A stretch of DNA of 32,000 nt from Xylanibacter ruminicola 23 (GTDB lineage: Bacteria; Bacteroidota; Bacteroidia; Bacteroidales; Bacteroidaceae), in assembly GCF_000025925.1 (NCBI RefSeq), contig NC_014033.1, positions 240,001-272,000 of the forward strand, in the 5' to 3' direction. The translations under genes were made by a program, and so were the position numbers. This document shows, piece by piece, positions 4,593 to 22,337 of the stretch (the stretch's first letter is position 1; every line of letters begins with the position of its first letter). Under the pieces are notes generated by a model. The model had not been told where the DNA came from. It saw only the letters and a list, made by a program, of their open reading frames with translations, and searched no databases.

Positions 4593-4609
4593 GCAAACAA
4601 CTACACCTT

Positions 4610-5572
4610 TTATAACTTTACAGTTGATATGTCCACCAGCCCATTGACTATTGCATAGATGGTCAATCCGGCTGGTGAATGTATTTGTAGCTTGCGGGCT
4701 ATGTTGCGGCGGTGGGTAATCACCGTGTTGATTGATATACACAAGTGATCGGCTATCTCCTTGTTCGACATACCCTGCACCAGCGAAATAATCACATCCT
4801 TTTCACGGTCGCTCAGCGCATCGGGATTCTGTGCGGTGGCATTGCCAAACACCATACCCGAAATGTTGCGTGTCACGTCCTGCTGCTTGGTAATCTGCTC
4901 CAATCGGCGGATGGCAGGCACAAAAATATGGTCCTCAACCATCGCGTGCTGGCGCAACCAAACCTCGTTCTCGTAAATATCGTGCAGTGTGGCGGTAAGC
5001 TGGTTGTTGTGCAGTCCGTCCTGTGGCAGATATTTAATAATCAGCAGTTTCAGCTCGCGCAATTTCTTGTCGGCAGCACCGTGGTGCTTCGAGAATGTCT
5101 CTACGTTGTAATCATTGGCAGGCTCGCCATCTATCAGCTGCTGTACGTAGGGGAACAAGGTTTTCTGCTCGTACTGCATGTGGCGACGTATCTCGTGGGC
5201 ATACTCGTCGTAGAATTTCAGTATCAGTCGGCCCAGCGAGTCGTTCTCATCCAGACTCTCGCTCAGCTCTCTGCGAATGTAAGGCAGCTGGAACTCCAGA
5301 AAATAGGCGTGGCTGGCCTGCAGATAGTGCAGCAGGGTAGGCACGCTGATCTGTTCGTCGTTGTCAAACTCACCATAACCGTTCATGGCGAAGTTCACCA
5401 CTGCCAGGAATGTGTAGGTGTCCACATCATTGTCTTCGCAGGTTTCGCGTACCGTCTTATCTCCAAAACCCAGGTTTATGCCAAAGCTTCCAAGTGCCTG
5501 CAACAAATCGTAGTTATCGCGGATCAGTGATATCATTTTATCGTCCGCTTCATACATCTTCTGATTCTTCAT
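4610..5572 (-). CDS. one-component regulator: RIC/ScdA-like hemerythrin-type domain fused to a LuxR-family HTH
   Basis: The C-terminus LSDREKDVIISLVQGMSNKEIADHLCISINTVITHRRNIARKL is a LuxR/GerE HTH. The N-terminal part has H/E-rich helices (AHEIRRHMQYEQKTLFP, QHAMVEDHIFVP). There is no receiver domain. Start moved to 5572 because a -7 box (rc TAATTTTG) lies at 5608-5615. Confidence 0.65.
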   Translation of the reverse strand: MKNQKMYEADDKMISLIRDNYDLLQALGSFGINLGFGDKTVRETCEDNDVDTYTFLAVVNFAMNGYGEFDNDEQISVPTLLHYLQASHAYFLEFQLPYIRRELSESLDENDSLGRLILKFYDEYAHEIRRHMQYEQKTLFPYVQQLIDGEPANDYNVETFSKHHGAADKKLRELKLLIIKYLPQDGLHNNQLTATLHDIYENEVWLRQHAMVEDHIFVPAIRRLEQITKQQDVTRNISGMVFGNATAQNPDALSDREKDVIISLVQGMSNKEIADHLCISINTVITHRRNIARKLQIHSPAGLTIYAIVNGLVDISTVKL

Positions 5573-5694
5573 TTCCTTACCTGTATGCCTATTAATGATT
5601 ACGGGTGCAAAATTAATACTATTTTTCGATATATACAATACTTATTATTAGGTATTTTTTTGCTGCTTGCTGCACGTTTCTCAATTATTCTTCG

Positions 5695-5702
5695 TACCTT
5701 TG
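5695..5702 (+). promoter_or_regulatory. -7 promoter box TACCTTTG
   Basis: TAnnTTTG lies 22 nt upstream of the ATG at 5724. This argues against the ORF-track start at 5667. Confidence 0.5.
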
Positions 5703-5723
5703 TGCCCAAAAGTAAGTAACTAT

Positions 5724-6866
5724 ATGAACCAGAAACTATCTCACATAGATTTCGAACAGGCTGGGGCCGACGTGTTCTGTTTTGATAACGGAACGCAGGT
5801 GCGCGAGTATCATGCCATCATTCGCGTGCAGCAGGCGTGCCTTCCGTTTGCCCAGCAGGTCGAGGCTGTGCTGAATGCCTACAACAGCTTGCTGGCCCAG
5901 TTGCCTGGTGCGCAAGCCGTATTTAAACGTTATTTTTTAAGCGATGCAGCCAATCAGGCCGACGCTATAGTAGTAAACGATGTTACCGACTGTGCCAAGA
6001 GCATTATCCAGCAGGCTCCTTTGGATGGTACCAAGGTGGCGCTGTGGGTGTGGCTCATGACCGATGTGCAAACCTCTATGACGCAGAGTGAGCTCTATGA
6101 GGTTAGTCACGGCCAGTTCCGCCATCTGTTTAATGCCTCGGCTCATAACCTGGCAGCCAACTCCGAGTATCAGATGCGCCTGCTCTTCAACGAGTATATC
6201 ATGCAGCTGGCTCAGGAGCGCTGTACGCTGGCCGATAACTGTATCCGTACCTGGCTGTTTGTCAACGATATCGACTTGAACTATGGTGGTGTGGTACGTG
6301 CCCGCAATCAGGTGTTCTTCACCCAGGGGCTTACTGTCAATACCCACTTCATTGCCTCTACCGGTATCGGTGGTCGCCAGCAGGATCCTAATGTGCTCGC
6401 CCAGATGGATAACTATGCCATCGCTGGCGTGCGCCCCGAACAGGTGCATTATCTCTATGCGCCTACCCATCTTAATCGCACCAGCGATTATGGTGTATCG
6501 TTCGAGCGAGGCACCATGGTAAGCTATGCCGATCGCCGCCATGTATTCATCTCAGGTACCGCCTCTATCAATAATAAGGGCGAGGTGATGTATCCCAACG
6601 ATATCGTGAAACAAACCCAACGTATGTGGGAGAATGTCGAGGCACTGCTGGTCGAGGCCGATTGCAATTTCGACGATGTAGCCCACATGATTGTTTATCT
6701 GCGCGATGTGGCCGATTATCAGCTGGTGCGCAGTCTCTATGCCGAACGGTTCCCAGGCAAACCCTGTGTCATCGTTCATGCGCCGGTGTGCCGCCCCGGG
6801 TGGCTCATCGAGATGGAGTGCATGGCCGTTAAGGCCGTGTGCTTGCCCAACATGCCTCAGTTCTAG
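5724..6866 (+). CDS. RidA/YjgF-fold protein, possibly an FkbO/Hyg5-like chorismatase
   Basis: The C-terminal ISGTASINNKGEV...TQRMWENVEALL...MIVYLRD...IEMECMAV is a RidA-type domain. The roughly 380-aa two-domain size fits the FkbO/Hyg5 type. The specific activity is not determinable here. Confidence 0.5.
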   Translation: MNQKLSHIDFEQAGADVFCFDNGTQVREYHAIIRVQQACLPFAQQVEAVLNAYNSLLAQLPGAQAVFKRYFLSDAANQADAIVVNDVTDCAKSIIQQAPLDGTKVALWVWLMTDVQTSMTQSELYEVSHGQFRHLFNASAHNLAANSEYQMRLLFNEYIMQLAQERCTLADNCIRTWLFVNDIDLNYGGVVRARNQVFFTQGLTVNTHFIASTGIGGRQQDPNVLAQMDNYAIAGVRPEQVHYLYAPTHLNRTSDYGVSFERGTMVSYADRRHVFISGTASINNKGEVMYPNDIVKQTQRMWENVEALLVEADCNFDDVAHMIVYLRDVADYQLVRSLYAERFPGKPCVIVHAPVCRPGWLIEMECMAVKAVCLPNMPQF

Positions 6867-10124: not shown

Positions 10125-11726
10125 ATGAAAAAACACTTAGTAATGCTGGCTGCCTTGCTCATGATGGGCACAGCAGGCGCCAATGCTCAGGGATTTCTGG
10201 GCAAACTAAAACAAAAGGCACAGCAAGCCGTTATCGGTAAAAAAGCAACTGCCGAGATAAGCGAGGCTGTGCAGGACGAGAGCGATGAGCCTGCCGACCC
10301 ATCTAAGTTGGCTGTGGCCGCTGGCGACGATATCGTGCCTAAGCGTAAAACCCCTACAGTTACGTGGGATGGAACCTTTACCCCCTCATCGGCCTCGTCG
10401 GCTTCGGCTTTGATGGCCGAGCTGCCACAGTTGCCATCGGCCGAGAAGATGGCCCGCAGCACCATGGAGGAGCGCGATGCCTATGCACTTAAGATAGCCC
10501 GCGTTGTGGCCCGTGCCGAGCAGTTGCAGGAGGGTGCCAACGGATGCTCCGATGCCGATATGGAAGCCCTGCGCCAAAAGTGGGAGCGCAAAGTGCAGGA
10601 TATGTTTGGCCTTACCAAAGAGGAGATGGCTATCCTGAACGATGAGAACGCGCCCGACTCGAAGAAGGAGCCCATCCAGCAAAAAGTGATGGCTAAAATC
10701 ATGGGTGGCAATGTTAACATGAGCGAGATGGAACGCTTTGAGAAGATGAGCGAGAAAGAGCAAGAGGCTTACATCAAGGCTCACCCCGATTTTGTACAGA
10801 AGATGCAGAAGATGGCCATGAATGCTGGCAACTTTAGCAAGCAGATGCAGCAAACTACAGGTGCCCTTACAGGCTATGAGGCTAAGGTGGGACAGCTGGC
10901 TCAAAACTTTGCTAAGGTGATTACGCGCGAGGCCAATCACGATTACAGTGCCATTGGCAAAAAGTACGATAGTAAGTTGCAGAAGCTTTACGAGCAGATA
11001 TGTGGTATAGATGATGCAGCCAAGATTGATGCCCTTTATGATGAGGCCGATCAGTTGCTGTACAACTATCGTTTAGAGGCTGCCAAGGAGTATCGCGCCT
11101 CGCTGCTGCGCCTGATTTCCGAGCACAAGAAGTTTGCTGCCGAATATACCCGCTTGTCGCGTGAGGTGGTTGCCAGTGGCGATCTGCCAGAATGTGCCAT
11201 CGGTCGTGCCGACCTGAATAGCGTGATTGCCGTGGGCAACATCTTAGACCAGGCCTATAAGGATCTGCCCGAGCTGCAGGCATCGCCCGTTTGTCAGGAA
11301 ACCGTCTACGAACTGCCAAAAGGCTGGACATTTGGTGCCTGGGAGTGTCGTGGCTACATTGGTGGCGTAAACGATTTTAAATCACCTGGTGGCAACTGGC
11401 CTTTGTTGGCCCAGAGCGCTGAGGCTGGCGAGTATGCAGTAGTCGAGAATGGCAAGTTCCGCAAGATTAACGAGGATGAGCTGAAGGCCATTAATAAAAA
11501 GGCCGATGCCCGACTGAAGAAGGGCGCTAATTCAGGCACTAACCCACCTTATGGTGTTTATAAGAGTCGTAGTGGCAAGCGCGTTGTAGAGTACTCTAAA
11601 ACGGGCGAGATTATCCTGAATGGTATGACCACCTACGCTCCAGCGGCCTTCACTGCTAACCCCGATCGTTTAGAGTGGATTATCTTCGATGAGGGTAAGA
11701 TTGTAAAGTGTACTTACAAACTGTAA
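10125..11726 (+). CDS. secreted hypothetical protein
   Basis: The signal peptide ends ANAQ. The gene is tightly packed, 11 nt after the OmpA gene and 1 nt before the next ORF. No domain recognised. Confidence 0.6.
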   Translation: MKKHLVMLAALLMMGTAGANAQGFLGKLKQKAQQAVIGKKATAEISEAVQDESDEPADPSKLAVAAGDDIVPKRKTPTVTWDGTFTPSSASSASALMAELPQLPSAEKMARSTMEERDAYALKIARVVARAEQLQEGANGCSDADMEALRQKWERKVQDMFGLTKEEMAILNDENAPDSKKEPIQQKVMAKIMGGNVNMSEMERFEKMSEKEQEAYIKAHPDFVQKMQKMAMNAGNFSKQMQQTTGALTGYEAKVGQLAQNFAKVITREANHDYSAIGKKYDSKLQKLYEQICGIDDAAKIDALYDEADQLLYNYRLEAAKEYRASLLRLISEHKKFAAEYTRLSREVVASGDLPECAIGRADLNSVIAVGNILDQAYKDLPELQASPVCQETVYELPKGWTFGAWECRGYIGGVNDFKSPGGNWPLLAQSAEAGEYAVVENGKFRKINEDELKAINKKADARLKKGANSGTNPPYGVYKSRSGKRVVEYSKTGEIILNGMTTYAPAAFTANPDRLEWIIFDEGKIVKCTYKL

Positions 11727-11727
11727 A

Positions 11728-12426
11728 ATGGTAGGTTTGCGCTATCTCATACTGTGGTTGCTGCTCTTTATGGGCAGCACCACTGTTTTTTCCACACGTT
11801 ATCAAAAAGTGTTTGGTAGCGATTGGACCTCGGCAGCACGTTATGTGGCCGATCACCACGCCGAGTGGCAGCAGGAGTTTGCGCCCTTTGGTGTGGATTC
11901 ACGTTTGGCCGAGGCTATCGTGTTTCCAGAGCTTATCCGCTATTCCATGTGGCAGGACGAGATAGAGCGAGCCGCCGTTAATGGCCTTTATGTTACCAAA
12001 GGCAGTCAGGGTGCCGACTTCTCTATTGGTCGGTTCCAGATGAAACCCTCGTTTGCCGAGCAGGTAGAGCAGGCGTGGAACCGTTCTTCGTTATCCAAGC
12101 AATACGGCTTTGTGTTCAACCTGCAGCCCAACAACCAAGCCCGTCGCTCGCGCATTCGCCGACTCTCCACCATGCAAGGCCAGTGCCGTTATCTGGCCAT
12201 TTTTATCTTGTTACAACAGCAGCGCCATCCCCAGTTGTCCCGTTTGTCGCACAAGGACCAGGTGCGATTCTTAGCCACCGCCTATAACCGCTCCTTTACC
12301 GCCTCCTATAGTCAGATACGCAAAATGCAGCACCACCGCCATTACCACACCGATGTTATCAAAACCCGCAGCACCCGCCTTTACTGCTATGCCGATATCG
12401 CCGTAGCGTATTACAATCAAATATAG
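11728..12426 (+). CDS. secreted hypothetical protein with weak lytic-transglycosylase-like motifs
   Basis: Has a signal/anchor segment. FPELIRYS ... SIGRFQMKP loosely resembles the SLT catalytic Glu and GLMQ motifs. This is a weak call. Confidence 0.45.
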   Translation: MVGLRYLILWLLLFMGSTTVFSTRYQKVFGSDWTSAARYVADHHAEWQQEFAPFGVDSRLAEAIVFPELIRYSMWQDEIERAAVNGLYVTKGSQGADFSIGRFQMKPSFAEQVEQAWNRSSLSKQYGFVFNLQPNNQARRSRIRRLSTMQGQCRYLAIFILLQQQRHPQLSRLSHKDQVRFLATAYNRSFTASYSQIRKMQHHRHYHTDVIKTRSTRLYCYADIAVAYYNQI

Positions 12427-12461
12427 AGCTCACAGACCATGCTGTGGGCTCTATCTCTTTT
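12425..12461 (+). terminator. intrinsic terminator-like hairpin after the 11728-12426 gene
   Basis: AGAGCTCACAG (12425-12435) pairs with CTGTGGGCTCT (12442-12452) over 11 bp with one G-U pair. A T-rich tract follows. Confidence 0.55.
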
Positions 12462-12550
12462 AATGGTTAATGGTTCGTGGTTGTTGTTCAACCTGCCATG
12501 CCGCTCGGCTATGCCGCTTGGCTTGTCCAAGAACTTGTGGCGCTTCGGGG

Positions 12551-12652
12551 CTAAGCCCCGATGCACGATGTCGCGCCCAGGGCCGTTACAATCGCTGTAG
12601 CGATACTGGCAATCATCTGCACGATAAACTTTAATGTTTCTTTCTTTGTCAT
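12551..12652 (-). CDS. 33-aa mini-protein MTKKETLKFIVQMIASIATAIVTALGATSCIGA (small peptide partner of the HU-like gene)
   Basis: Hand-translated ATG...TAG ORF, not in the ORF track because it is under 60 aa. It lies directly downstream of the HU-like gene on the same strand. As I recall, NCBI labels this family 'smalltalk protein'; that recollection is unverified. Confidence 0.5.
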   Translation of the reverse strand: MTKKETLKFIVQMIASIATAIVTALGATSCIGA

Positions 12653-12656
12653 AGCT

Positions 12657-12691
12657 TTTAATGTTTAATGTTTAATGGTCAATGGTCAATG
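12657..12691 (-). repeat. five tandem heptamers (sense: CATTGAC x2, CATTAAA x3) 4 nt upstream of the mini-ORF start
   Basis: Read directly on the + strand: TTTAATG x3 (12657-12677) and GTCAATG x2 (12678-12691). Confidence 0.9.
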
Positions 12692-12695
12692 GATA

Positions 12696-12719
12696 GGGTG
12701 GGGCTTTCGCCCCAAACCC
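12696..12719 (-). other. GC-rich hairpin with a GAAA tetraloop between the HU-like gene and the mini-ORF
   Basis: The minus strand reads GGGTTTGGGGC GAAA GCCCCACCC and begins 1 nt after the HU stop codon. No U-run follows, so an RNA processing or stability element is more likely than a terminator. Confidence 0.5.
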
Positions 12720-13256
12720 TTAGTCTCCGATGGGCTCATTATGGTTTCCACCGCCACCGGTATTGCCACCAGTGTTTCCACCGGTATTACCACCGTTCGA
12801 TGGCTGGTCGGGATCCTCGATATCGCCGCTATCACCGCTGGTCACACGCTTCAGCACTTTGCCATCCTCGTCCAGGCAGGTAATCTGGATGCTGGTATTC
12901 TTCAGCTCGTCCTTAACGTCCACGTTAGGGGTAAAGATAATGCGACGAACACTGATCAATCCAGTCTTTACGTCCTCCAGGTTCTCAACGGCCTTACTGC
13001 GCACTCCGAATCGCATGGTACCCAGACCTGGCAGTGGTACTGAGTGACCCTCGGTGGCCCACGTACGGATTACTTCACCTGCAGCATCCCAAGCTGCCTT
13101 AATTACACCTGCAGAGATACCCGAGTGGGTGGCTGCCTCTGCGAACACTTTCTTCTCCTGGATAGGGCTATACAGCTCAGGACGCATAATGAATCGCTTA
13201 CCAGGTTTGTTGCCGATTTTAAGCTCTCGGCGCTGAGCAATTACTTTAATCGCCAT
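12720..13256 (-). CDS. Bacteroidales HU-related DNA-binding protein with a Gly/Asn/Thr-repeat C-terminal tail
   Basis: The N-terminal 120 aa (KPGKRFIMRPELYS...IRTWATEGHSVPLPGLGTMRFGVRS) match the HU-related family typical of Bacteroides/Prevotella. The tail is SNGGNTGGNTGGNTGGGGN. Confidence 0.75.
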   Translation of the reverse strand: MAIKVIAQRRELKIGNKPGKRFIMRPELYSPIQEKKVFAEAATHSGISAGVIKAAWDAAGEVIRTWATEGHSVPLPGLGTMRFGVRSKAVENLEDVKTGLISVRRIIFTPNVDVKDELKNTSIQITCLDEDGKVLKRVTSGDSGDIEDPDQPSNGGNTGGNTGGNTGGGGNHNEPIGD

Positions 13257-13441
13257 ACTTCTAAAATTTTTAATGGTTAATGTTTGATATTTTCAATAAT
13301 CTCGCTTTGCCGCCTTGGAGTGCAGATTTCAACCGCTATTAGTACTTTCAATTGTTACTATTAATGCGCGCAATTTCTAGATTTAATTCTCGCAATTTTT
13401 AGCCTTAATGCCGCTGCTCTTACTCTCTCAATTTGACAATG

Positions 13442-13449
13442 CAAAGGTA
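13442..13449 (-). promoter_or_regulatory. -7 promoter box (rc TACCTTTG) for the HU-like gene
   Basis: This is the only TAnnTTTG match upstream of 13256 on the minus strand. It implies a leader of about 180 nt with no ATG. Confidence 0.45.
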
Positions 13450-13528
13450 CGAAAAATTCAGCATATATACAAGCGTTTGTTCATTTTATTTTTAATTTAT
13501 TTCTACATAGATTTACCACTACCGAGCA

Positions 13529-13553
13529 CCTAACGTCCTAACGTTCTAACATT
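13529..13553 (+). repeat. CTAAC repeat block CCTAACGTCCTAACGTTCTAACATT
   Basis: Read directly. It shares CTAACGTCCTAAC with 21808-21820. Confidence 0.9.
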
Positions 13554-13595
13554 GCGATTTCTCAATTATCCCATCACCTATCAATACTCTCTATA

Positions 13596-13647
13596 AATAT
13601 ATATTATTATATTATATATTATAATATATAATATAATAATATATATT
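13596..13647. repeat. perfect 52-bp palindrome composed only of A and T
   Basis: Checked base by base about the centre at 13621/13622. All 26 pairs are complementary, and the symmetry breaks at 13595/13648. Confidence 0.95.
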
Positions 13648-13658
13648 CTAATAAGCAC

Positions 13659-13716
13659 GTTAGTTACTACCTAACAAAATACCAAATGTTAGTTTGTTAG
13701 GTGGTTAGATGGTTAG
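13659..13716. repeat. GTTAG repeat block (inverted relative to 13529-13553), including a 9-bp inverted repeat CCTAACAAA/TTTGTTAGG
   Basis: Read directly. 13685-13701 is the reverse complement of CCTAACAAACTAACATT at 21823-21839. The 9-bp stem is 13670-13678 with 13693-13701. Confidence 0.9.
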
Positions 13717-13724
13717 GTGGATTG

Positions 13725-14897
13725 CTAATACGTTAGTCCAAACTGCCAAAGGGGGATGATGTTGGCATGGCCTGTTTCGATATCGTCTTTCACTACGTAG
13801 CCTTGGGCTGCATTTTGTATCTGTTTCTGCTTCTTACTTTTTCCGCCCACCTCAAAGGTCTTGCCGTCTATTTCGAAATCGCTTATTCGTGAACTGATGA
13901 CATCAGTAGTTACACGCATCTGATTGTAGAAGAAAGTCTCGCGGATGTTGCCAATGTCGGTACTCTCATGTCCAAGTACATAGGCCAGGTTCGTGTTGTC
14001 AAGATATACTTTCTCTACCTTTCCTAAGCCACGTATGCCGCCAGTATCGTCGCGTAGTTGTCCTATCATACCAGCCTGTTCCATGTAGAGGAAGTAGTCG
14101 GGTAGCACGTTGCGACTTACACCTATAACTGTGGCCAACGACTCCATGACAGGTTTAAAGGGTACACTCTGTGCTATCACGGCCAGTAGCTTCTTTAGTT
14201 TGCGGCCTGTTGATGCGTTCATATTCGCATATTGGGGAATGTCTACCTCCATTGTTTGGTTGATAACCTGGCGCATACGCATCTCGTAGCCACCCTCGTT
14301 TGCAAATGGATAGTAGCCGTTTTTTAGATAATCCCTGAATAGTGGTAGAGGATGATTGATGGCATCAAGTTTCGCTTTATGCTCCAGGATATCGTTGATG
14401 GTATATACCGGGGCGTTTATGTTATGAAATAATGCCAGATATTCTCGGAAAGAAAGTCCCTGCATGGTATATATCAGCGTACGTCGGCTCAGGTCGGATG
14501 CTCCTTTTGTGATATCAAGTATGGATGAGCCTGTGAATCCAACCTTCAAGTCTGGATGAGAGTCATAGATGAGTTTCAATTCTCGCGACCAGTTCTCGTA
14601 TTTATGAATCTCGTCGATGAATATCTGCTCACCACCGTCTTTTACAAACTCATCTACAGTGGCGATAAGTGTGTGGGTTGAGAAATACAGATGGTCGGCA
14701 GCTACATATAGCATGTGCCGCTTGTCTCTGTTCTCCTTGATGTATTGCAGGATCATTGTTGACTTTCCCACACCACGTGGGCCAACAAGTCCAAACATTC
14801 TCGACTCCCAACTCACCTGATCGTACATATACCGATGGAATGTTGAAGTGGTTAACTTCAACTGACTCTCCATGAATTCAATAAGCGAAATATCCAT
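13725..14897 (-). CDS. AAA+ ATPase of the AAA_14/DUF4143 type
   Basis: Walker A is LVGPRGVGKST and Walker B is IFIDEIH. Length and C-terminal region are typical of DUF4143 ATPases. Start set at MDISLIEF (14897), since the ORF-track extension runs across the promoter and operators. Confidence 0.8.
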   Translation of the reverse strand: MDISLIEFMESQLKLTTSTFHRYMYDQVSWESRMFGLVGPRGVGKSTMILQYIKENRDKRHMLYVAADHLYFSTHTLIATVDEFVKDGGEQIFIDEIHKYENWSRELKLIYDSHPDLKVGFTGSSILDITKGASDLSRRTLIYTMQGLSFREYLALFHNINAPVYTINDILEHKAKLDAINHPLPLFRDYLKNGYYPFANEGGYEMRMRQVINQTMEVDIPQYANMNASTGRKLKKLLAVIAQSVPFKPVMESLATVIGVSRNVLPDYFLYMEQAGMIGQLRDDTGGIRGLGKVEKVYLDNTNLAYVLGHESTDIGNIRETFFYNQMRVTTDVISSRISDFEIDGKTFEVGGKSKKQKQIQNAAQGYVVKDDIETGHANIIPLWQFGLTY

Positions 14898-14918
14898 AAT
14901 CGTTATATTTTTTTGCTG

Positions 14919-14926
14919 CAAATATA
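14919..14926 (-). promoter_or_regulatory. -7 promoter box (rc TATATTTG) of the ATPase gene
   Basis: A TAnnTTTG match lies 22 nt upstream of the ATG at 14897. Confidence 0.5.
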
Positions 14927-14932
14927 ATAAAA

Positions 14933-14983
14933 ATGCACTATGGTAGTGCATAAAACAATAGAAAAGTGCACTAAAATAGTGCA
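14933..14983. promoter_or_regulatory. two copies of the palindrome TGCACTA-N3-TAGTGCA (operator-like)
   Basis: The copies are at 14934-14950 (arms extend to 8 bp) and 14967-14983, with centres 33 bp apart. The proximal copy abuts the -7 box. Confidence 0.5.
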
Positions 14984-15098
14984 ATTTAACGATTTTTTAC
15001 GGAAAACCTTTGAAAATGAACTTTCTTGCTTAGCAAGCCCATGTGCTAAATTGTCTTAATATATTTCCTGCATCTTTTGTTAGGTGCAGGATTATTTG

Positions 15099-15106
15099 TA
15101 CTTTTG
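15099..15106 (+). promoter_or_regulatory. -7 promoter box TACTTTTG for the orphan ORF pair
   Basis: TAnnTTTG with a TTTG at 15076-15079 in a plausible -33 position. It lies about 125 nt upstream of the ATG at 15233. Confidence 0.4.
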
Positions 15107-15171
15107 TGTACTTAAATTAATTTGAATTAATCAATGGCTAAGAACAACAAAAACCAAATAGAGGTTGAACC

Positions 15172-15188
15172 GGTCACAAAATGTGACC
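15172..15188. promoter_or_regulatory. palindrome GGTCACA-AAA-TGTGACC in the leader of the orphan pair
   Basis: Perfect 7-N3-7 inverted repeat with the same geometry as the ATPase operators but a different sequence. Confidence 0.45.
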
Positions 15189-15232
15189 AGTTAGGAATAA
15201 TATTTGGACTGTTATAATAAGATATGTAATAT

Positions 15233-16309
15233 ATGGAAACAAAAGACATAAAACAACTTCAGTATGAAAACAAAAAACTGAAGAAGGAGTATGGTAGGCT
15301 GCTTGAAGAGATTCAGCGCTTATGGAGATTTAAGAAGGAAACAAAGCTGTTTTCTTCTGAGTATATGAAACGTCTGCAGCAGACTGACCTTAGGAAAAAG
15401 GTGTTTGAAGGTACTGACTTTACTATTTTTAAAGGCATTAATGAAAGCGATAGCAGGCAGTTTATGCTTTACAATATAGAAAAGATAATTGGTCAGCAGC
15501 CAAATGGTGATGCAGCCCAGAAGTACGTATCGCAAATATATGGTGAGAAAAAACTGTTGGATTTAGACGAACCATTCCCGTTTATACCTATGGAGAATGT
15601 GGATGGCTGGCTTCTTGATATGGTAAGGCTGATGGGATGCTTGATGGGGCAGAACCCTTGGGGAAAGTGCTTTTCGTTAAGATGGCTCAGCTCTAGGTTT
15701 GAGGCTGGAACTGGAGACGATCCGTATCAGTTCTCACCAGAAAACGAAGAACTTTTGTATTGGCTGGAGGTTACGGAATATAGAAGAATAGCTGCGCTTG
15801 TCGCCAAGATGGTAGAAAGTATAACTATGCTCGAATACCAGAGAATATCTTCGGCTGTTTATGATTATATATGGGAGAAACTACATGGCTTTATCCCTGA
15901 TTGGGCCAATGTAGACCAATGTAATTCGTATATCAATAGCCTGCTTGATATAATAAATAATGTAAACGCCCATATCAAGGAAGGTGCACAACGTGGGCTC
16001 TGTATCGAAGAAGTTGGGCTGATTGACTCACTTTGGGGTGATGTGAATCATACCTACCATAAAGACTATTTAGCTGCAACTAAGGAGATTTGGCAGAAGA
16101 TAAAGCCTGTTCGTGATAGTTTTTGTGATGGCGGCAGGAATCGAGAGAATTATCAATTATTCGTTAACGATATGCTTAAAATTGCTCTGCCGATTGCAGA
16201 GCAATACAATCTTGACATGGAACTTGACGATGAACATAGTCTACCGTTGAGTTATCTTAAGTATTGGTTGGAATCAATTTATTGTTACGATGATTACCGC
16301 CTTGAATAA
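15233..16309 (+). CDS. orphan protein A (358 aa) with an N-terminal coiled coil
   Basis: Long ORF with no competing frame. AT-rich: hand count 35 G+C in 15241-15340, against 56 in 7021-7120. No motif recognised. Confidence 0.7.
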   Translation: METKDIKQLQYENKKLKKEYGRLLEEIQRLWRFKKETKLFSSEYMKRLQQTDLRKKVFEGTDFTIFKGINESDSRQFMLYNIEKIIGQQPNGDAAQKYVSQIYGEKKLLDLDEPFPFIPMENVDGWLLDMVRLMGCLMGQNPWGKCFSLRWLSSRFEAGTGDDPYQFSPENEELLYWLEVTEYRRIAALVAKMVESITMLEYQRISSAVYDYIWEKLHGFIPDWANVDQCNSYINSLLDIINNVNAHIKEGAQRGLCIEEVGLIDSLWGDVNHTYHKDYLAATKEIWQKIKPVRDSFCDGGRNRENYQLFVNDMLKIALPIAEQYNLDMELDDEHSLPLSYLKYWLESIYCYDDYRLE

Positions 16310-17135
16310 AGAACCACTAATACCACGTGGCGACTATTCGCCAGTAGTACGTGATAGGATTAACCGGTTAAAGCAAGATGCCGATCGGTTATTCTCATTG
16401 GGTGCAGTTCGAAAGCGATGTCAGCAGGCTTTAGTGCAGTTTTACGCCAATCTTAAGCCAGAACCATACGTAGATCTGCGCACTCAGCTATCTAACAATA
16501 GGGAGTATCGCTTTGCGCAAAGTCTTACGCTTACCTATAGATCTACCAACGATAGACTGGTACAATGGGCAAAGGGGTGCATGAGCGAATATCTGCTGCA
16601 AGAAGCTATTGAGGAGCGCGAGCGGTTGATTGAGAATTTTGCGCGTATTAAACTTGCCAGCCGCTGGTATCAGATGAAAGACGATGATGAGGCTTGGCGT
16701 GTGTTCTCGCAAAACATACCCTATGACGATGCCGACAGGGAGAAAGAAATAGATGAGTTTTTTGAAACGCTGGATATCCTTTGTATCCTGACAGATGTGA
16801 TTAACGGCCATGCTGCAGAGTACGGACTTGATGTAGACTACCATACGCGTACTTTGACGGGAGTTTTAGCCTCAGAAAAAGCGGTGAAATACTGGAAACA
16901 ACTGGTAGAACAGCAGTTTGTTGACCAGCACTACATGCTATTGGCAAGCACTACTCGCCAGCAAGCAATGTATATTGCAGAACTATTTGCAGAAACGCTG
17001 GAACTGGAAGACAAATGGAAAACTTTTGAAGACTTCTGGGGTATCAACAATCTGGCCCAGGAGAAGTATAAATGCACAGAGTTAGGCAAGTTACCTGCCC
17101 GCTCTGATGTTATCGATATGATTTTCAAAGATTAA
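16290..17135 (+). CDS. orphan protein B (281 aa), start overlapping A by 20 nt
   Basis: The ATG at 16290 lies inside the end of A, which suggests translational coupling. A terminator follows. No motif recognised. Confidence 0.7.
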   Translation: MITALNKEPLIPRGDYSPVVRDRINRLKQDADRLFSLGAVRKRCQQALVQFYANLKPEPYVDLRTQLSNNREYRFAQSLTLTYRSTNDRLVQWAKGCMSEYLLQEAIEERERLIENFARIKLASRWYQMKDDDEAWRVFSQNIPYDDADREKEIDEFFETLDILCILTDVINGHAAEYGLDVDYHTRTLTGVLASEKAVKYWKQLVEQQFVDQHYMLLASTTRQQAMYIAELFAETLELEDKWKTFEDFWGINNLAQEKYKCTELGKLPARSDVIDMIFKD

Positions 17136-17162
17136 TATAACTGCCTGATAATCAATATAAGT

Positions 17163-17210
17163 GTCCCCTATATAGTCCCTACTATAGCCCCTATTATAGC
17201 CCCTATATAG
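17163..17210 (+). repeat. four tandem 12-mers: GTCCCCTATATA, GTCCCTACTATA, GCCCCTATTATA, GCCCCTATATAG
   Basis: Read directly. The last copy forms the 5' arm of the terminator hairpin. Confidence 0.9.
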
Positions 17211-17221
17211 GGGCTTTTTTT
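17198..17221 (+). terminator. intrinsic terminator of the A-B operon
   Basis: AGCCCCTA (17198-17205) pairs with TAGGGGCT (17208-17215), followed by seven T. Confidence 0.75.
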
Positions 17222-17234
17222 GTTTTAATAGCCG

Positions 17235-17242
17235 TACCTTTG
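17235..17242 (+). promoter_or_regulatory. -7 promoter box TACCTTTG
   Basis: TAnnTTTG immediately after the terminator. It overlaps the ORF-track start at 17240, which favours the ATG at 17342. Confidence 0.45.
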
Positions 17243-17341
17243 CCGTCGATAAGAATTTTATGTTTAATCCGAGTGGGGTGGGAGTCCTCTGAGGTGAAAA
17301 GCTGCAGCAATCATGCTCTTCTCACAAAACACTTGGAAAAG

Positions 17342-17824
17342 ATGAAACAAGTAGTATTGCGTATCGACGACGCAGCTTTTGAGAAGTTTATGGGTATGGT
17401 AGATCTATGCCCGATGGTTGAGGTGCTGAATGTTTGCAGCACTGGCGACAAGAAACTTACCATTGATACCTATGTGGCATCGGCCATACGCGAAATGCGA
17501 CAGGCCCTGGCTTTTAAGAACCCCTGCGACTATGCTTACCTGATGGTGGCTATGAACGAGAGCGTGGTAAAAGGATTGCCCTTTTTCTATACCCCCAAAG
17601 ATTTTATCGACTATATGCACCAATCTGATTTTGATAATCTGCCTGGTCGCACCACCATCTACGATACCATAGCTAAGGTAAAAGGAAAGTACCCCGACTG
17701 GACGTTTACCGATAGCCCCAAAGCCAGCGAGGCACTGCGCAGAAAGAACTTGGTGAAGCGATTTTTGAGTGCCTTTATGAGGGCTCAAAACAATAAGTCG
17801 GACGGTTGGTCGGACGAAGCTTAA
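17342..17824 (+). CDS. hypothetical protein (160 aa)
   Basis: The start MKQVVLRIDD lies downstream of the promoter box. The antisense 197-aa ORF looks non-protein-like. Confidence 0.6.
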   Translation: MKQVVLRIDDAAFEKFMGMVDLCPMVEVLNVCSTGDKKLTIDTYVASAIREMRQALAFKNPCDYAYLMVAMNESVVKGLPFFYTPKDFIDYMHQSDFDNLPGRTTIYDTIAKVKGKYPDWTFTDSPKASEALRRKNLVKRFLSAFMRAQNNKSDGWSDEA

Positions 17825-17848
17825 AGGTGTCGGACGATACGTCGGACA
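17797..17848 (+). repeat. four direct copies of GTCGGAC(G/A) with 12/20/12-nt spacing
   Basis: The copies start at 17797, 17809, 17829 and 17841. They straddle the stop codon at 17822-17824. Confidence 0.9.
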
Positions 17849-18015
17849 ATAGAAAATAAAGCCATCGTGGGGTGAATTTTTATTGCGAACTTTGCCGATG
17901 AAATCAGCGAGAACAGGCTGCACCTCAGCAATTCGAGCGAGCTCGATTGCATTCGGTTTGCACTGTCCTTGCATCGTCGAAAGGAAAAAACGACGCAAAT
18001 TTAAAATTAAAAGTT

Positions 18016-18336
18016 ATGGTAAGACAAAGTATTTTTGAAAAGAGAAAAGGCGGTCAGTTCATCTTCGAAGATGAAGACCTGATGAGAGTACAGTGCTTGG
18101 AACATGATGCCGAGAGCGTGATGTGCCAACTGGAGAACAAATTAAGCCAACCGTTGCTGTTTATGCTTAACCAACAGCTGTTAGGGTTCAGCAGCCAGAT
18201 GCAACAAGAACTGGCAATGGATATGGTTGACTATGTGTGCGACGATGTGATACGAATGACGGGATGCCCATCGGCTGATTACGTATTGGAAACGTGTTAC
18301 GCATGGATAGAGGAAGAGCAGGGAGGTGTAGCGTGA
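18016..18336 (+). CDS. hypothetical protein (106 aa)
   Basis: ATG at 18016 after an A-rich leader. The stop TGA overlaps the next ATG (TGATG). Confidence 0.55.
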   Translation: MVRQSIFEKRKGGQFIFEDEDLMRVQCLEHDAESVMCQLENKLSQPLLFMLNQQLLGFSSQMQQELAMDMVDYVCDDVIRMTGCPSADYVLETCYAWIEEEQGGVA

Positions 18337-18566
18337 TGGAACAGATAGTTAATGCCTATCACATTAAGGTGAACAAATGCTGTGCATCGTGCAAGCATAA
18401 GGAAAGCCAGAATGATGGTACAAGGCAGTGCACTAAGACGGGGCAGATAGTAGAGGCGAAATCGGTATGCCCTGAGTGGGAAATGAACGACTGTCTGCGT
18501 AATGCAGGCTTGCAAAAGGGAGCCGTGGTTCGCCTGAAAGGAACTACAGAAATAGTAATATGTTAA
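18336..18566 (+). CDS. small Cys-rich protein (76 aa), possible zinc ribbon
   Basis: KCCASCKH ... RQCTKTG ... SVCPEW gives a four-or-more-Cys pattern. The start is coupled to the preceding stop. Confidence 0.55.
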   Translation: MEQIVNAYHIKVNKCCASCKHKESQNDGTRQCTKTGQIVEAKSVCPEWEMNDCLRNAGLQKGAVVRLKGTTEIVIC

Positions 18567-18597
18567 ACATTAAACATTAAAGATTAAACATTAAAGA
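18563..18597 (+). repeat. five tandem heptamers TTAAACA/TTAAAGA (CATTAAA register) ending 3 nt before the ATG at 18601
   Basis: Read directly. The unit and orientation relative to the downstream start match 12657-12677. Confidence 0.9.
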
Positions 18598-18600
18598 GTT

Positions 18601-18912
18601 ATGAAGAAAATGACAAAAATTGAAAAGATGGTGCGCATGTTTAGCGGCACCGACGATATTGAAAAGCAGTTTGCTAATGATGTACAGACTTGGGGTGATG
18701 AGTTTACAGCTATAGCCGATAAGCTCGACATCCGTAACCCCTGGGATCAGGCTGTGCTGGTGGCTATTTTTACCAACATGCTGGCATGTATAACGGTTAA
18801 CGCCATGTTTGATGGTGTGAACTTGGAGAAGGCTATACGTGATAACTATTATGATGCCTTGAAGGAATACAAGAAACAGGCTGCAAGGGAAATTGCGAAA
18901 GGTAACATCTAA
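18601..18912 (+). CDS. hypothetical protein (103 aa)
   Basis: Clean ORF on the same strand as its neighbours. No motif recognised. Confidence 0.55.
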   Translation: MKKMTKIEKMVRMFSGTDDIEKQFANDVQTWGDEFTAIADKLDIRNPWDQAVLVAIFTNMLACITVNAMFDGVNLEKAIRDNYYDALKEYKKQAAREIAKGNI

Positions 18913-19014
18913 GAAAGGTAAGTAAATAACCGAGTCGAAGTGTGGTGGAGGAAGTCTACGTAGTGAAAATGGCCAAATTCTAACACAACCCTTCACTCAT
19001 CAATTCGACAAGTT

Positions 19015-19335
19015 ATGAAAAAATATATTGCTATTGACGAAGAGGTTCTTGTGCGCCTCGTTGAAGGAAAGCGCGTAGAGGGTTCACTACATCGTGACAA
19101 GTTTACGGGAGTGATAACATTTAATGCCTATAAGCGTAAGTCGCGTAATTGCGCGAACGACCGCCTGGTAAAAAAGTTGCCATGGGGCTGGGTTAAGGAG
19201 AGTATACAGCGTATCAAGGTGTATGGCAGTTTCCCCAAAGAATTGGGTGCTGCAGCAGTGATGGGGCTGATGGACGATCACCATCGCGACGCCAAGAATG
19301 CGATGATAGAACGTGAACTGATTGAATTCTGCTAA
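19015..19335 (+). CDS. hypothetical protein (106 aa)
   Basis: Clean ORF directly upstream of the primase-like gene. No motif recognised. Confidence 0.55.
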   Translation: MKKYIAIDEEVLVRLVEGKRVEGSLHRDKFTGVITFNAYKRKSRNCANDRLVKKLPWGWVKESIQRIKVYGSFPKELGAAAVMGLMDDHHRDAKNAMIERELIEFC

Positions 19336-19372
19336 GGCTTAATTCAAAATTGATAATTGAAAATTTAAGATT

Positions 19373-21811
19373 ATGTTTTGCTATCAGAAAAACTTTAGTA
19401 ACCCCACCTTGCCGGTAGATGAGACTCAGTTCTGGGCTCTTGTTAAGGCCACCAAGTGGAACGAGAATATCGATAAGTATCGCGAAACGGGCGATGCAGC
19501 GTTGAAACGCAAACTGCCTGCATTCATCTTTCAGGCTACTTTCGACGAAACAACATCGGCCAAAGGTAGATTAGGTGCCTGGCGCAAACAGGCAGCCACC
19601 CGCTTAACGGGCCTGGTGGTGATGGATCTCGACCATATCGAGAACCCGTTAACCCTGTATCAGGGCTGGATAGATAAAGGCCTCGACCTGAAGGCATTGG
19701 GCATTGTGCTCGTGTATATCACACCCAGTGGAAAGGGATTGAAGATTGTGTTCAAGGCCCGACTGGATTGGGGCAACCTGATTGATAATCAGCACGCTAT
19801 GGCCAAACTGCTGGGCGACGAGGTGGTAGTGGATGAGGCCTGCAAGGACTCGTCGAGAATGAGTTACATTTGCAAATATACCGATATTTTATTTATTGAT
19901 AAAGAACTGTTTAGTTATGAGAACCAAGAGTATGCTGAGCGATATACTGCTCTATATCGAGACGGTCGCTCACAGAGCGAGAGTGCGAATCTTCCAGAAA
20001 CATCAACTCCCATCGAGCATAGTAACGAACCTGTAATGTGGCGTGGATATGATGTACAGTGTATTATTGATAAGCGCTATGGCGATAAGCTGCCATGCCG
20101 AGAGGATAGAAACAGACATAACGAAAGCCTCAAGTTGGCCTCTGATCTGCTCACACTACTCGACGGCGATAGGGTTGATGTGCAGCGAGTGCTCGAAAAG
20201 CAGACGTGGGTACAGGAACTCATCAGCGAGGGCGAAAGGGTGGAGAATACCATATCGAGTGCCGTTGAGCACAAACGCGATAAGGAGAAGAAATTCCTTA
20301 ATCAGCTGCCCAGTAAGCCCATGCTTGAGGCTATCCAGGAGGTTACGGGTAAGACGTGCCAGGAGATTACGAAGGGCACGAAAGCGTCAACGGCGGCGGT
20401 GCTGAAGGATGATACCATGGCACAGATGCTGTGGGAATGGGGTGAAGAGATTGAGGCCCTGAGTGAGTACTATCCAGCCCTGAAGGATGTGTGCAAGGGC
20501 TTGAAGCACAACCAGTACCCAGCGGCCCTGTTTGTAGCAGGCGGCCTGTTGATGACGCTGATGACACGTTGCACGTACCGCTTTTACCATCGACCAGAAG
20601 AGTTGCGACGATTGAACAACTCAACGCTGATAATTGGCGATCCTGCCAGTGGTAAGAGTTTTGCCACCCGCTTGTTTAAACTGCTGGCAGCACCTATTAT
20701 TGAGGCTGATAAAGTAGGTAAAGAGGCTATTAATGCCTATCGCGAGCAGATGCGCACCAAGGGCGCTAACAAGGAGAAGCCTAAGAAACCTAAGGTTATC
20801 GTACGTGTACACCCTGCACGAACCAGTAATGCCCAGTTTATACAGGACATGGTGAACAGTGTAGAGGAGGTGGATGGCGAGCCCATGCAGCTGCACATGC
20901 TGACGTTTGATACCGAGTTGGATAACACTATCTGTGTACAGAAGGGTGGTAGCTGGATCGACAAGCAGAGCATGGAACTGAAGGCGTTCCATAACGAGGA
21001 AGATGGACAGGCATACTCGAACAACGACTCTATCCTGCAGGATTTCTTCGTGACCTGGAACTACATCTACACAGGTACGCCCATCGCGCTGAAAAAGAAG
21101 GTGAACGCGCAGAACTTCGGCTCAGGACTGGCTACCCGACTGACCTGCATTCCGCTGCCTGCTACCAACTTTAAGATGATGACGCGCGAAAGTAATGTGG
21201 ATTACGATAGCGACAACCGCTTAAAGGAATGGGCTAAGAAGCTGGACCGTACCAAGGGCGAACTCTCAGTTCAGAAGCTGGTAGATGAACTCTACGACTG
21301 GACAGCCCGTCGAATGGCCGATGCAGAAGAGAACGACAGCAAAGCCGACGAGATGCTGCTGAAACGTTGTGCCTACCATGGCTTGAACTTCTCGGCTCCG
21401 TTTATCGTGATGCGCCACTGGGGCGATCTGCATCAGGAAGGCAACTACTGGTGTGGTACATTCGAGACGGACGAAATAGATTGGCGACTGGCTGAACTGA
21501 TAGTAAACATACAGTATGCCTGCCAGCGATACTACTTTGGTGCGATGGCCGAAGCCTACTTCGACAACAAACTGAAGGATGCCAGCGTAAACGTGCAGCG
21601 TCGTCAGAAAACCTACGAAGGTTTCGAGCGACTGCCCGATGTGTTTACAACCGACGATGTGGTTCGTTGCTTCCAGCTAAAGAGTGCTGCTACAGCCTAT
21701 ATGCGAATAAGTCGTTTGACCAAGGATCGACTAATAGAAAAGGCCGAAGACTATGTTGAAGATGGATGCGCCAAGGTGCGCTATCGTAAAACCGGTCTGC
21801 TCATGATCTAA
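19373..21811 (+). CDS. VirE-N/BT4734-like N-terminal domain plus P-loop NTPase (primase-helicase-like replication protein)
   Basis: The N-terminus PAFIFQATFDE...RLTGLVVMDLDHIENP fits the VirE_N/BT4734-like type. Walker A is GDPASGKSF at about residue 420. The 812-aa architecture is common in Bacteroidales cassettes that carry HU-like genes. Confidence 0.75.
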   Translation: MFCYQKNFSNPTLPVDETQFWALVKATKWNENIDKYRETGDAALKRKLPAFIFQATFDETTSAKGRLGAWRKQAATRLTGLVVMDLDHIENPLTLYQGWIDKGLDLKALGIVLVYITPSGKGLKIVFKARLDWGNLIDNQHAMAKLLGDEVVVDEACKDSSRMSYICKYTDILFIDKELFSYENQEYAERYTALYRDGRSQSESANLPETSTPIEHSNEPVMWRGYDVQCIIDKRYGDKLPCREDRNRHNESLKLASDLLTLLDGDRVDVQRVLEKQTWVQELISEGERVENTISSAVEHKRDKEKKFLNQLPSKPMLEAIQEVTGKTCQEITKGTKASTAAVLKDDTMAQMLWEWGEEIEALSEYYPALKDVCKGLKHNQYPAALFVAGGLLMTLMTRCTYRFYHRPEELRRLNNSTLIIGDPASGKSFATRLFKLLAAPIIEADKVGKEAINAYREQMRTKGANKEKPKKPKVIVRVHPARTSNAQFIQDMVNSVEEVDGEPMQLHMLTFDTELDNTICVQKGGSWIDKQSMELKAFHNEEDGQAYSNNDSILQDFFVTWNYIYTGTPIALKKKVNAQNFGSGLATRLTCIPLPATNFKMMTRESNVDYDSDNRLKEWAKKLDRTKGELSVQKLVDELYDWTARRMADAEENDSKADEMLLKRCAYHGLNFSAPFIVMRHWGDLHQEGNYWCGTFETDEIDWRLAELIVNIQYACQRYYFGAMAEAYFDNKLKDASVNVQRRQKTYEGFERLPDVFTTDDVVRCFQLKSAATAYMRISRLTKDRLIEKAEDYVEDGCAKVRYRKTGLLMI

Positions 21812-21839
21812 CGTCCTAACATCCTAACAAACTAACATT
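21808..21839 (+). repeat. CTAAC repeat block CTAACGTCCTAACATCCTAACAAACTAACATT
   Basis: Read directly. It starts at the primase-like stop codon and relates to 13529-13553 (direct) and 13685-13701 (inverted). Confidence 0.9.
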
Positions 21840-21896
21840 AAGAAAAAGGAACAGATAGTACAGTTAAATAGTAAAGCAAACCTCTCCCAGCACTTC

Positions 21897-22319
21897 GTGC
21901 TCGAGGAGTTCACCAGGAGCAAGTATCCTGAGGTGTATAACATTCCCAGTCACGAGGTTATTGCAAATCTGAAGCGGTTGTGTGAGTGGTTGGAAGTGCT
22001 GCGCAAGCGTTATAATGATAAATATGGAGAGGGAGAAGATCCTATCCGTATTAACTCTGGGTATCGCAGTCCGCAGTTGAATCGCAAAGTGGGGGGAGCC
22101 CCCACCAGTAATCACTTAACGGGCTGTGCGGTGGATATTCGCACCAATGGTATGGAGCAGGCAATAGAATATGCAGCCATATTGATAGCCTATGCCAATG
22201 AATCGGCACAGGACTATGATGAACTGCTGATAGAAAAAAATCGCTATGGTGCCGTGTGGTTGCACTTCGCCGTGCGCCCCAAAGATAATCGTAGAAAAGT
22301 AGCGTTTATACAAGCGTAG
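21897..22319 (+). CDS. peptidase M15 (zinc D-Ala-D-Ala carboxypeptidase/endolysin-like); start codon uncertain
   Basis: NSGYRSPQLNRKVGGAPTSNHLTGCAVD plus a later WLHFAV gives the H..D..H zinc ligands of the M15 family. The frame is open from 21828, but the only canonical start is the GTG at 21897. Confidence 0.75.
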   Translation: MLEEFTRSKYPEVYNIPSHEVIANLKRLCEWLEVLRKRYNDKYGEGEDPIRINSGYRSPQLNRKVGGAPTSNHLTGCAVDIRTNGMEQAIEYAAILIAYANESAQDYDELLIEKNRYGAVWLHFAVRPKDNRRKVAFIQA

Positions 22320-22337
22320 TATAAATGATATAAGCAG

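Follow-up and report, generated by a model that had tools for sequence, protein, structure and literature searches.

The closest described relatives of the locus discussed here are to be found among single-gene defence candidates, phage satellites, modular phage regulators, self-cleaving proteins of the LexA/CI/UmuD type and integron gene cassettes. The locus itself lies in a stretch of 32,000 nucleotides (nt) of Xylanibacter ruminicola 23 (NCBI RefSeq assembly GCF_000025925.1, contig NC_014033.1, positions 240,001–272,000 of the forward strand); this whole stretch is 'the window' below, and coordinates refer to it unless another locus is named. It comprises an ATPase gene on the minus strand (13725–14897) and, divergent from it, two genes on the plus strand, A (15233–16309, 358 aa) and B (16290–17135, 281 aa), which overlap by 20 nt. 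An earlier analysis, the sequence-only reading, had placed these open reading frames (ORFs) correctly, and had taken the three for a self-contained and undescribed module of the defence or abortive-infection kind. Comparison with related loci (L001–L075, most of them retrieved through A or B themselves) gives a different picture: the three genes are very probably two independently exchangeable cassettes that lie side by side, not one system.

The ATPase has the nearest described relatives. No other single candidate locus is as frequent in rumen genomes as PDC-S01, the class that combines AAA_14 with DUF4143 (COG1373), which occurs 10,358 times in 6,530 of them (PMC13356809); a PD-(D/E)XK nuclease fold has been assigned to DUF4143 (PMC3424549). 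The window ATPase contains an AAA_14 domain of the P-loop NTPase type (PF13173, 1e-27, cutoff 27 bits), with the Walker A and B motifs that the sequence-only reading had noticed (Walker A, GPRGVGKST), and it matches seven PADLOC hidden Markov models of PDC-S01, best of all PDLC04787 (4.5e-25; residues 37–344 against positions 32–341 of 412 in the model). It behaves, moreover, as a single-gene mobile cassette in a slot for defence cargo. As a member of the single-gene candidate class that rumen genomes carry most often (PMC13356809), the ATPase is not undescribed, and 'undescribed' and 'tied to no named system', both of which had been said of the three genes together, hold only for A and B; these have no significant PADLOC match and belong to no described family. 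The likeness of the ATPase to PDC-S01 has its limits. The class is a computational candidate, the DUF4143 match here (PF13635) is weak, at E=0.011 and 15.9 bits against a Pfam gathering score of 28.1, and the two dyads TGCACTA-N3-TAGTGCA at the promoter of the window ATPase are not among the features described for PDC-S01. We know of no experimental defence phenotype for PDC-S01.

The island that holds the three genes (~12570–22326, ~9.8 kb, by blastn against sister loci) recalls the P4-like satellites and the phage-inducible chromosomal islands, or PICIs (PMC9122126). Like them it is compact, with a primase-helicase gene, an iteron-bearing, AT-rich, origin-like region and a lysin-like gene; like them it and its relatives carry phage-type regulators (ORF6N, Bro-N and ANT), and swap unrelated defence systems at a fixed site between close relatives. 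It differs from them in lacking genes for packaging or for the exploitation of a helper. Its anchors are also different—an HU-HIG gene and an M15 peptidase gene—and a repeated hairpin-promoter element marks the limits of its cassettes. By gene content it does not qualify as a satellite: we found neither integrase nor tRNA or attachment (att) site, and no capsid or terminase families among its ORFs. No description of satellite-like islands in Bacteroidales was found in the searchable literature, nor any paper on this type of island, and searches on PRU_0213–0216 and on DUF4248, DUF3987 or HU-HIG neighbourhoods returned nothing relevant.

B invites comparison with phage regulators. Iyer, Koonin and Aravind are said to have set out, in 2002, the modular phage regulators of the KilA-N/Bro-N/ORF6N and ANT (KilA-C) type. 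B resembles these in joining one conserved domain to many exchangeable partners that are also found alone, and in its setting, a phage-like early region where it has ORF6N, Bro-N and ANT genes for neighbours. It differs from them in being always paired with an adjacent A, and in that neither A nor B matches the Bro-N, ORF6N, KilA-N or ANT models; their predicted folds, too, have no match in PDB or BFVD. Self-cleaving S24 proteins of the LexA/CI/UmuD type enter the comparison by position: one of them occupies the exact place of A–B in some sister islands, behind the same junction promoter. A and B have no sequence similarity to it, and the analogy is one of position only. Integron gene cassettes, finally, share with the island promoter-proximal, exchangeable cassettes split by a repeated structured element (65–78 nt, doubled in L069 and L072); in the island, however, there is no integron integrase, the repeat combines a promoter with a terminator-like hairpin where integrons have an attC fold, and only two slots are seen.

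The evidence that the three genes are not one system comes from islands that are 93–100% identical elsewhere and in which the ATPase and A–B are uncoupled both ways. L009, L010, L067 and L070 have an A gene 100%, a B gene 96% and a primase gene 93–99% identical to those of the window, and no ATPase gene. The island of strain Ga6B6 (L013) shows the reverse: its ATPase is 98% identical, and the equivalents of window positions 15020–15974 and 16330–17161 are missing, leaving the last 111 codons of A and nothing of B. A third arrangement is found in L071, L072 and L074, where the HU gene, ATPase and backbone are 94–97% identical and a 295-aa Peptidase_S24 gene stands exactly in place of window positions 15109–17256. 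Next to identical copies of the ATPase in L061 and L062 stand genes with a PspC or a SurE domain. As a single gene, then, the ATPase cassette occurs with A–B, with the S24 gene, with a cut-down A, or beside PspC/SurE-domain genes, and uncoupling of the three genes is seen in L009, L010, L013, L061, L062, L067, L070, L071 and L072. Two genomic checks had been proposed with the sequence-only reading. Conserved co-occurrence of the three genes was not found: among 27 loci whose sequence reaches 1.5 kb or more upstream of A, the ATPase is present in L020 only, and all three genes stand together in the window strain, L020, L060 and L069. Presence/absence polymorphism was found, A–B being deleted in L013 and exchanged for the S24 gene in L071, L072 and L074. 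The only unbiased sample consists of islands that share an identical 106-aa ORF, and it covers close relatives only; five of these loci have A–B and three the S24 gene, the decayed L013 stemming from another search.

The S24 protein (L071 5250–6137; also in L072 and L074) has a UmuD-like S24 domain at its N-terminus (3.6e-20), with a Cys-Gly site and the serine motif GDSM, and a C-domain of 150 aa without known match. It is unusual for an S24 domain to stand at the N-terminus and to be followed by an extension. By eye the C-domain had seemed to be of the type found in B; this was dropped (BLASTP E=9).

Because near-identical islands uncouple the genes on either side of it, the spacer between the ATPase and A (14898–15232) is a junction. 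Its length, 335 bp, and its three dyads (14933–14951, 14967–14983 and 15168–15192) are as the sequence-only reading had them; its standing as a single control region is not, for 14898–15020/40 tracks the ATPase and 15035–15232 tracks whatever occupies the second slot. On the ATPase side are a perfect Bacteroidetes -7 box, read from the sequence (TATATTTG, 14926–14919, minus strand), and the dyads ATGCACTA-N3-TAGTGCAT (14933–14951) and TGCACTA-N3-TAGTGCA (14967–14983). The pattern TGCACTA-N3-TAGTGCA is matched twice, against 0.12 matches expected by chance, and the two dyads, just upstream of the -7 box, are in what appears to be an operator-like position. The -7 and -33 promoter calls rest on the published Bacteroides consensus; a scan for sigma-70 promoters gave fewer matches than shuffled controls and was set aside, the model being unsuited to Bacteroidetes.

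The conserved element at the junction (15035–15112, plus strand) contains a hairpin, TCCTGCATCT-N6-AGGTGCAGGA (15066–15091), and a putative promoter of the Bacteroidetes type on the same strand (-33 TTTG, 15076–15079; -7 TACTTTTG, 15099–15106). It is conserved in L009, L010, L019–L023 and L067–L072, and the hairpin has undergone a compensatory change in L020 and a G-U-compatible change in L009/L010. Homology with the S24 islands stops 2 nt past the -7 box, and so one promoter would drive either cassette. Where the element is doubled, one copy lies on each side of the ATPase cassette (2643–2713 and 4051–4119 in L069; 3815–3876 and 5214–5262 in L072). This suggests that the ATPase cassette inserted at the junction element, and that the element behaves like a cassette boundary or recombination site. 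The exchangeable A–B cassette begins within it, and extends over 15109–17256 (plus strand; limits by blastn against L071, L072 and L074). An intrinsic terminator (AGCCCCTATATAGGGGCT, then a T-run; 17198–17222, plus strand) ends the A–B unit; the strong terminator that had been reported past B is thus present (17198–17215).

In the leader of A–B is the remnant, 27 codons long, of an ORF6N-domain gene (15134–15217, plus strand), which is intact (339 aa; ORF6N 1.3e-26) between the promoter and A in L022/L023. The third dyad, AACCGGTCACA-N3-TGTGACCAGTT (15168–15192), lies within this remnant. In L009/L010 it has become GGTCGTA-N3-TACGACC, by way of two compensatory pairs, and the intact gene holds a further perfect 11-N1-11 palindrome. 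That compensatory changes keep the ORF6N palindromes points to selection at the level of DNA or RNA inside coding sequence. In the N-terminal coding region of the ORF6N gene of L023 (2424–3443), peptide repeats of the form V-x-K/N-C-D-N/Q coincide with palindromic DNA: GGTCACA-N3-TGTGACC, GGTCGTA-N3-TACGACC and GGTTATCGCAA-A-TTGCGATAACC.

The ATPase cassette (13717–15040, minus strand; edges by blastn against L009, L013, L069 and L072) fills what we call slot 1, and the contents of this slot vary widely. L009, L010, L067 and L070 have 7.4 kb there with HTH_3, WYL-WCX, LRR_5 and bpMoxR genes; L006 has RE_BanI, Mrr and a methylase; L015, an MmeI-like enzyme; L017, GmrSD, WYL and HIRAN genes; L057, a type III restriction-modification system; L004, a PLD-DEAD-DUF3427 helicase with NUDIX; and L072, a Sel1-caspase-like gene. 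For cargo of the defence type, slot 1 of the related islands is a hotspot. The sequence-only reading was right about the setting, a variable, low-G+C accessory stretch between the HU-like gene and a replication module. Its hand counts of G+C (35/100, 47/120 and 56/100) were exact on recount, and A is indeed the compositional outlier, with 39.7% G+C the lowest gene of the island. B and the ATPase had been put at about 48%; recomputed, both are near 45% (44.7% and 45.0%). The spacer has 29.0%, the island as a whole 44.7% and the flanks 50–51%, all of these values being for whole genes or segments.

A (ADE81047.1) and B (PRU_0215, ADE82266.1) are identical to proteins of the type strain X. ruminicola 23 that are annotated, both of them, 'hypothetical protein'. 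A has 31 close homologues, and a profile search of 1.8 billion representatives gives its family 103 clusters at 50% identity; the homologues of B number more than 165. The two are an obligate gene pair. Of 36 metagenome loci fetched by way of a motif in the B N-domain, 35 have an A homologue immediately upstream on the same strand, and the thirty-sixth starts at nt 22; A and B are adjacent in all genome loci except the decayed L013; and in L015 a distant A homologue precedes a B-like gene (hhalign, 97.8%). Ratios of nonsynonymous to synonymous substitution (dN/dS) of 0.13–0.20 for A and 0.05–0.16 for the N-domain of B indicate purifying selection on both. Both proteins are acidic (isoelectric points, pI, 5.0 and 5.1), and both are all-alpha in their AlphaFold models, that of A confident (pLDDT 84, pTM 0.83) and that of B fair (pLDDT 76, pTM 0.62).

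B consists of a helical N-domain, residues 1 to ~185, conserved throughout the family, and an exchangeable C-domain, residues ~186–281, of which there are at least seven unrelated versions. The version in the window (TTRQQAMYIA...KWKTFEDFWGINNLAQ) occurs also on other N-termini, and as stand-alone proteins of 93–161 aa at the same position in the island. A ends in an invariant acidic tail motif, ELDDEHSLPLSYLKYWL, and has many invariant Asp, Glu, His and Arg residues. In L021–L023 it is a mosaic: residues 31–330 are 27–77% identical to the window, whereas the 30 residues at its start and the 28 at its end reach ~97%, as does the whole of B (~97–98%), which indicates that the core of A is exchanged between alleles by recombination. 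The PRU_0214/PRU_0215 pair, which is conserved in some 100 clusters at 50% identity, bears a signature of domain shuffling that is typical of conflict interfaces.

Searches for relatives outside the family were fruitless. A, B and the small ORFs of the island have no significant match in Pfam, PHROGs, NCBIfam or PADLOC; of ten distant members of the A family scanned against Pfam, nine have no domain and the tenth, the weakest match to the family, has sub-threshold or spurious matches only. Sequence-profile searches of A and B against PDB found nothing. We regard as noise a match of B to type IV Cas11 (PADLOC, E=0.0011, 17 bits; there are no cas genes nearby), and another to Cleaved_Adhesin (13 bits). 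Foldseek comparison of the models, a check proposed earlier, gave no relative: the best matches (A, E 0.36 against PDB; B, 2.7 against PDB and 1.3 against BFVD, with TM-scores of at most ~0.2) were rejected as generic helical proteins. Two suggestive motifs in A were dropped for want of structural support, SLPL as a clamp-binding motif, in which the key Gln is missing, and EEVGLID as a MazG-like motif, in which the register is wrong.

What, then, might these cassettes do? We lean towards the view that two independent cassettes of a Prevotellaceae island are at hand, of which the ATPase stands alone and A–B serve the island as a regulatory or sensor adaptor. The ATPase would probably work by itself, as a defence candidate of the nuclease type that depends on nucleoside triphosphate, and its dyads may serve to regulate it; since DUF4143 is classed as PD-(D/E)XK, it is probably an ATP-dependent effector of the nuclease type. 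The A–B operon would be transcribed from the junction promoter to its own terminator, with translation of A and B coupled. The proteins might form a heteromer, in which the N-domain of B would hold A and its swappable C-domain would pick a variable target or partner; and the pair might then act, as sensor or regulator, in the phage-like early or regulatory circuit of the island. We suggest a regulatory role because a UmuD-like S24 protein takes the same promoter position in sister islands, and because the neighbours of A–B are genes of the antirepressor type. Thus Bro-N (L004) or ORF6N (L022–L026) genes lie 5' of A, and ANT genes lie 3' of B in L004, L015, L025, L046, L048/L049 and L051; at least 10 loci have ORF6N/Bro-N upstream or ANT downstream. 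By analogy, the S24 protein suggests that the second slot, slot 2, holds signal-responsive regulators. For the A–B pair itself, regulatory adaptor is a tentative description, which the sequences make possible without making it probable.

Several observations weigh against this account. The invariant Asp, Glu, His and Arg residues of A could belong to an enzyme, not an adaptor, and no structural match gives either A or B a biochemical activity. Facultative presence, low G+C content and an allele-swapped core fit a cargo or defence gene as well as they fit a regulator. The loci, mostly retrieved by way of A or B, are a biased sample of the islands of this kind. And replication and mobility of the island are surmised from its architecture, to which no integrase, tRNA target or excision junction can be added.

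The rival that survives best, possible though on the whole unlikely, is that A–B are cargo themselves: an autonomous two-gene system against phages or other mobile genetic elements, in which the C-domain of B senses the invader and A is the effector. Much of what has been described above can be read this way. A–B lie directly beside the defence cargo slot, with a promoter and terminator of their own; they are facultative; A has the lowest G+C of the island and a core swapped by recombination; the C-domain of B is modular and sensor-like; and the pair is absent from the 2.9 million viral contigs of IMG/VR. Against it, PADLOC offers nothing significant, only the 17-bit Cas11 match of B, and the searches turned up no effector fold in the pair, whether nuclease, NTPase, TIR, SIR2, pore-forming or of another kind. 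True cargo varies, whereas the position of A–B with respect to the primase module is fixed in every locus that is long enough; a divergent primase-helicase-like gene lies downstream even in L047 (BLASTP 3e-26) and, weakly, in L004 (E 0.001). The recurrence of A–B beside antirepressor-type genes, and selection that is purifying overall, also speak against autonomous defence.

It is very improbable that A–B are replication accessory proteins, an origin-binding organiser and a loader that would serve the primase-helicase in the manner of lambda O and P. The constant synteny upstream of the primase-helicase gene, the iteron-like origin and the layout of B, a conserved N-domain with a variable C-domain as in replisome organisers, would suit such proteins. 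However, L013, L071 and L074 have no functional A–B pair and yet have primases 95–99% identical to that of the window, and identical CTAAC arrays (described below); L015 combines the same type of B C-domain (74% identity) with repeats that are mostly different; and no DNA-binding fold was recognised. Very improbable, too, is the reading of A–B as a toxin-antitoxin or addiction module by which the island is stabilised. An overlapping, translationally coupled two-gene operon with a dyad in its leader, in a variable island, calls such modules to mind; but the proteins are large and acidic, with no known toxin or antitoxin domain and no DNA-binding antitoxin fold, and the dyad belongs to the remnant of an ORF6N gene rather than to a dedicated operator. 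Nor is there any sign of compensation in L013, which keeps a remnant of A with B deleted, or in L071, which lacks both. The three-component system of the sequence-only reading, co-regulated through the 335-bp region, we consider scarcely credible: the divergent arrangement, the dyads, the four loci that have all three genes and the candidate-class membership of the ATPase speak for it, but the genes are uncoupled both ways, the spacer is two segments with separate histories (14898–15020 with the ATPase, 15035–15232 with A–B or the S24 gene), and PDC-S01 is defined as a single-gene candidate.

The false three-gene 'system' accordingly leaves the list of candidates, and two testable objects take its place, a cargo hotspot and an obligate pair. 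The cargo slot has precise and recognisable borders, HU-HIG and the origin-like repeats on one side and the hairpin-promoter element on the other, and these could guide a search for new defence genes among the Prevotellaceae of rumen and gut, and possibly among other Bacteroidales, where defence islands are poorly mapped. A bolder extension of our preferred account strikes us as rather unlikely, but worth stating. The islands might be a satellite-like replicon family of Prevotellaceae and other Bacteroidales with two integron-like slots, the first for defence genes and the second for sensors of infection or DNA damage—A–B, or a RecA-responsive S24 protein—that would switch on replication or an abortive response. 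If so, A–B would be a new class of phage-sensing adaptor, with specificity set by the C-domain of B; and if the island does replicate, or respond to phage, its family would be the first satellite-like one described for the phylum, as far as we have found in the literature.

The rest of the island can be described more briefly. Its gene order is a DUF6486 mini-ORF, HU-HIG (minus strand), the origin-like region, the cargo slot, A, B, five small ORFs, a BT4734-type primase-helicase and the M15 peptidase. Homology to sister islands starts at ~12570, within the mini-ORF at the left end (33 aa, DUF6486; 12551–12652, minus strand), which is identified from the gene call, from the Pfam family in L068/L059 and from the blastn boundaries. 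The left anchor is the HU-HIG family DNA-binding protein (12720–13256, minus strand; Pfam PF18291, 1.8e-14), whose gene occupies the equivalent position in L004, L006, L009, L011, L013, L015 and L055; HU-HIG genes mostly have no conserved operonic linkage (Burroughs et al., PMC5499826). To the right of A–B, behind a candidate -7 box (TACCTTTG, 17235–17242, plus strand), come the five small backbone ORFs (17342–19335, plus strand), of 160, 129, 90, 103 and 106 aa and without family match. Two of them, the Cys-rich, zinc-ribbon-like ORF of 90 aa (18294–18566) and the ORF of 106 aa directly 5' of the primase gene (19015–19335), are kept across distant islands at 32–67% identity, and look like true backbone genes. 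The primase-helicase (19373–21811, plus strand) combines a BT4734-like_N domain with a DUF3987-like P-loop domain. The peptidase, M15_3 or endolysin-like (21897–22319, plus strand; PHROG 894, 1.1e-26; Pfam family in L068), marks the right end of the island, at ~22326 by blastn. A single contig in IMG/VR, L075 (IMGVR_UViG_3300032007_004053), contains a relative of the primase (71% identity), followed by genes for an M15 peptidase, an ADP-ribosylglycohydrolase, SIR2 and NUDIX (1750–6755 for the whole run). No phage structural gene is found among the annotated flanking ORFs of that contig, which look cellular or of defence type, and the run of genes is perhaps a cluster of defence type from the opposite end of an island.

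Between HU-HIG and the ATPase cassette lies the origin-like region (13530–13716). It has CTAAC repeats with a period of 8 nt in two inverted arrays, one of three copies (13530–13550, plus strand) and one of four (13688–13716, minus strand), and between these, upstream of the HU gene, a perfect palindrome of 52 bp made of A and T only (13596–13647). A third array (21808–21836) comes right after the stop codon of the primase gene. The CTAAC pattern has eight matches against 1.5 expected, all of them within the island; the rest of the 32 kb has none. L009, L013, L020 and L023 have conserved the layout, and more distant islands have different repeats of 7–8 nt at equivalent places. In sequence, arrays and palindrome together look like the origin of a plasmid or satellite.

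On either side the chromosomal genes are ordinary: recF-like, ribH, histidine kinase, AsmA and OmpA genes on one, His_Phos_2 on the other. Islands 94–99% identical have other chromosomal neighbours in other strains of X. ruminicola; on the right these may be His_Phos_2, GH94 (CP071890.1) or DHFR/ThyA (L067). Domain scans found no integrase domain in any ORF of the island; no att or other direct repeats were recognisable at its ends, and no excision junction was found. The sole tRNA gene of the window (214–298) is 12 kb off, and an RNA scan found no Rfam family. To the left of the island are two ORFs of 533 aa and 232 aa (10125–12426) without family match, which are missing on the left side of the near-identical Ga6B6 island. 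Tandem repeats with a period of 7 nt (TTAATGG, TTAATGT or TCAATGG) lie close to the left boundary, on its outer side (12440–12480) and on its inner side (12655–12695), downstream of the HU gene, and short-period repeats also follow the primase gene in L001 and L015.

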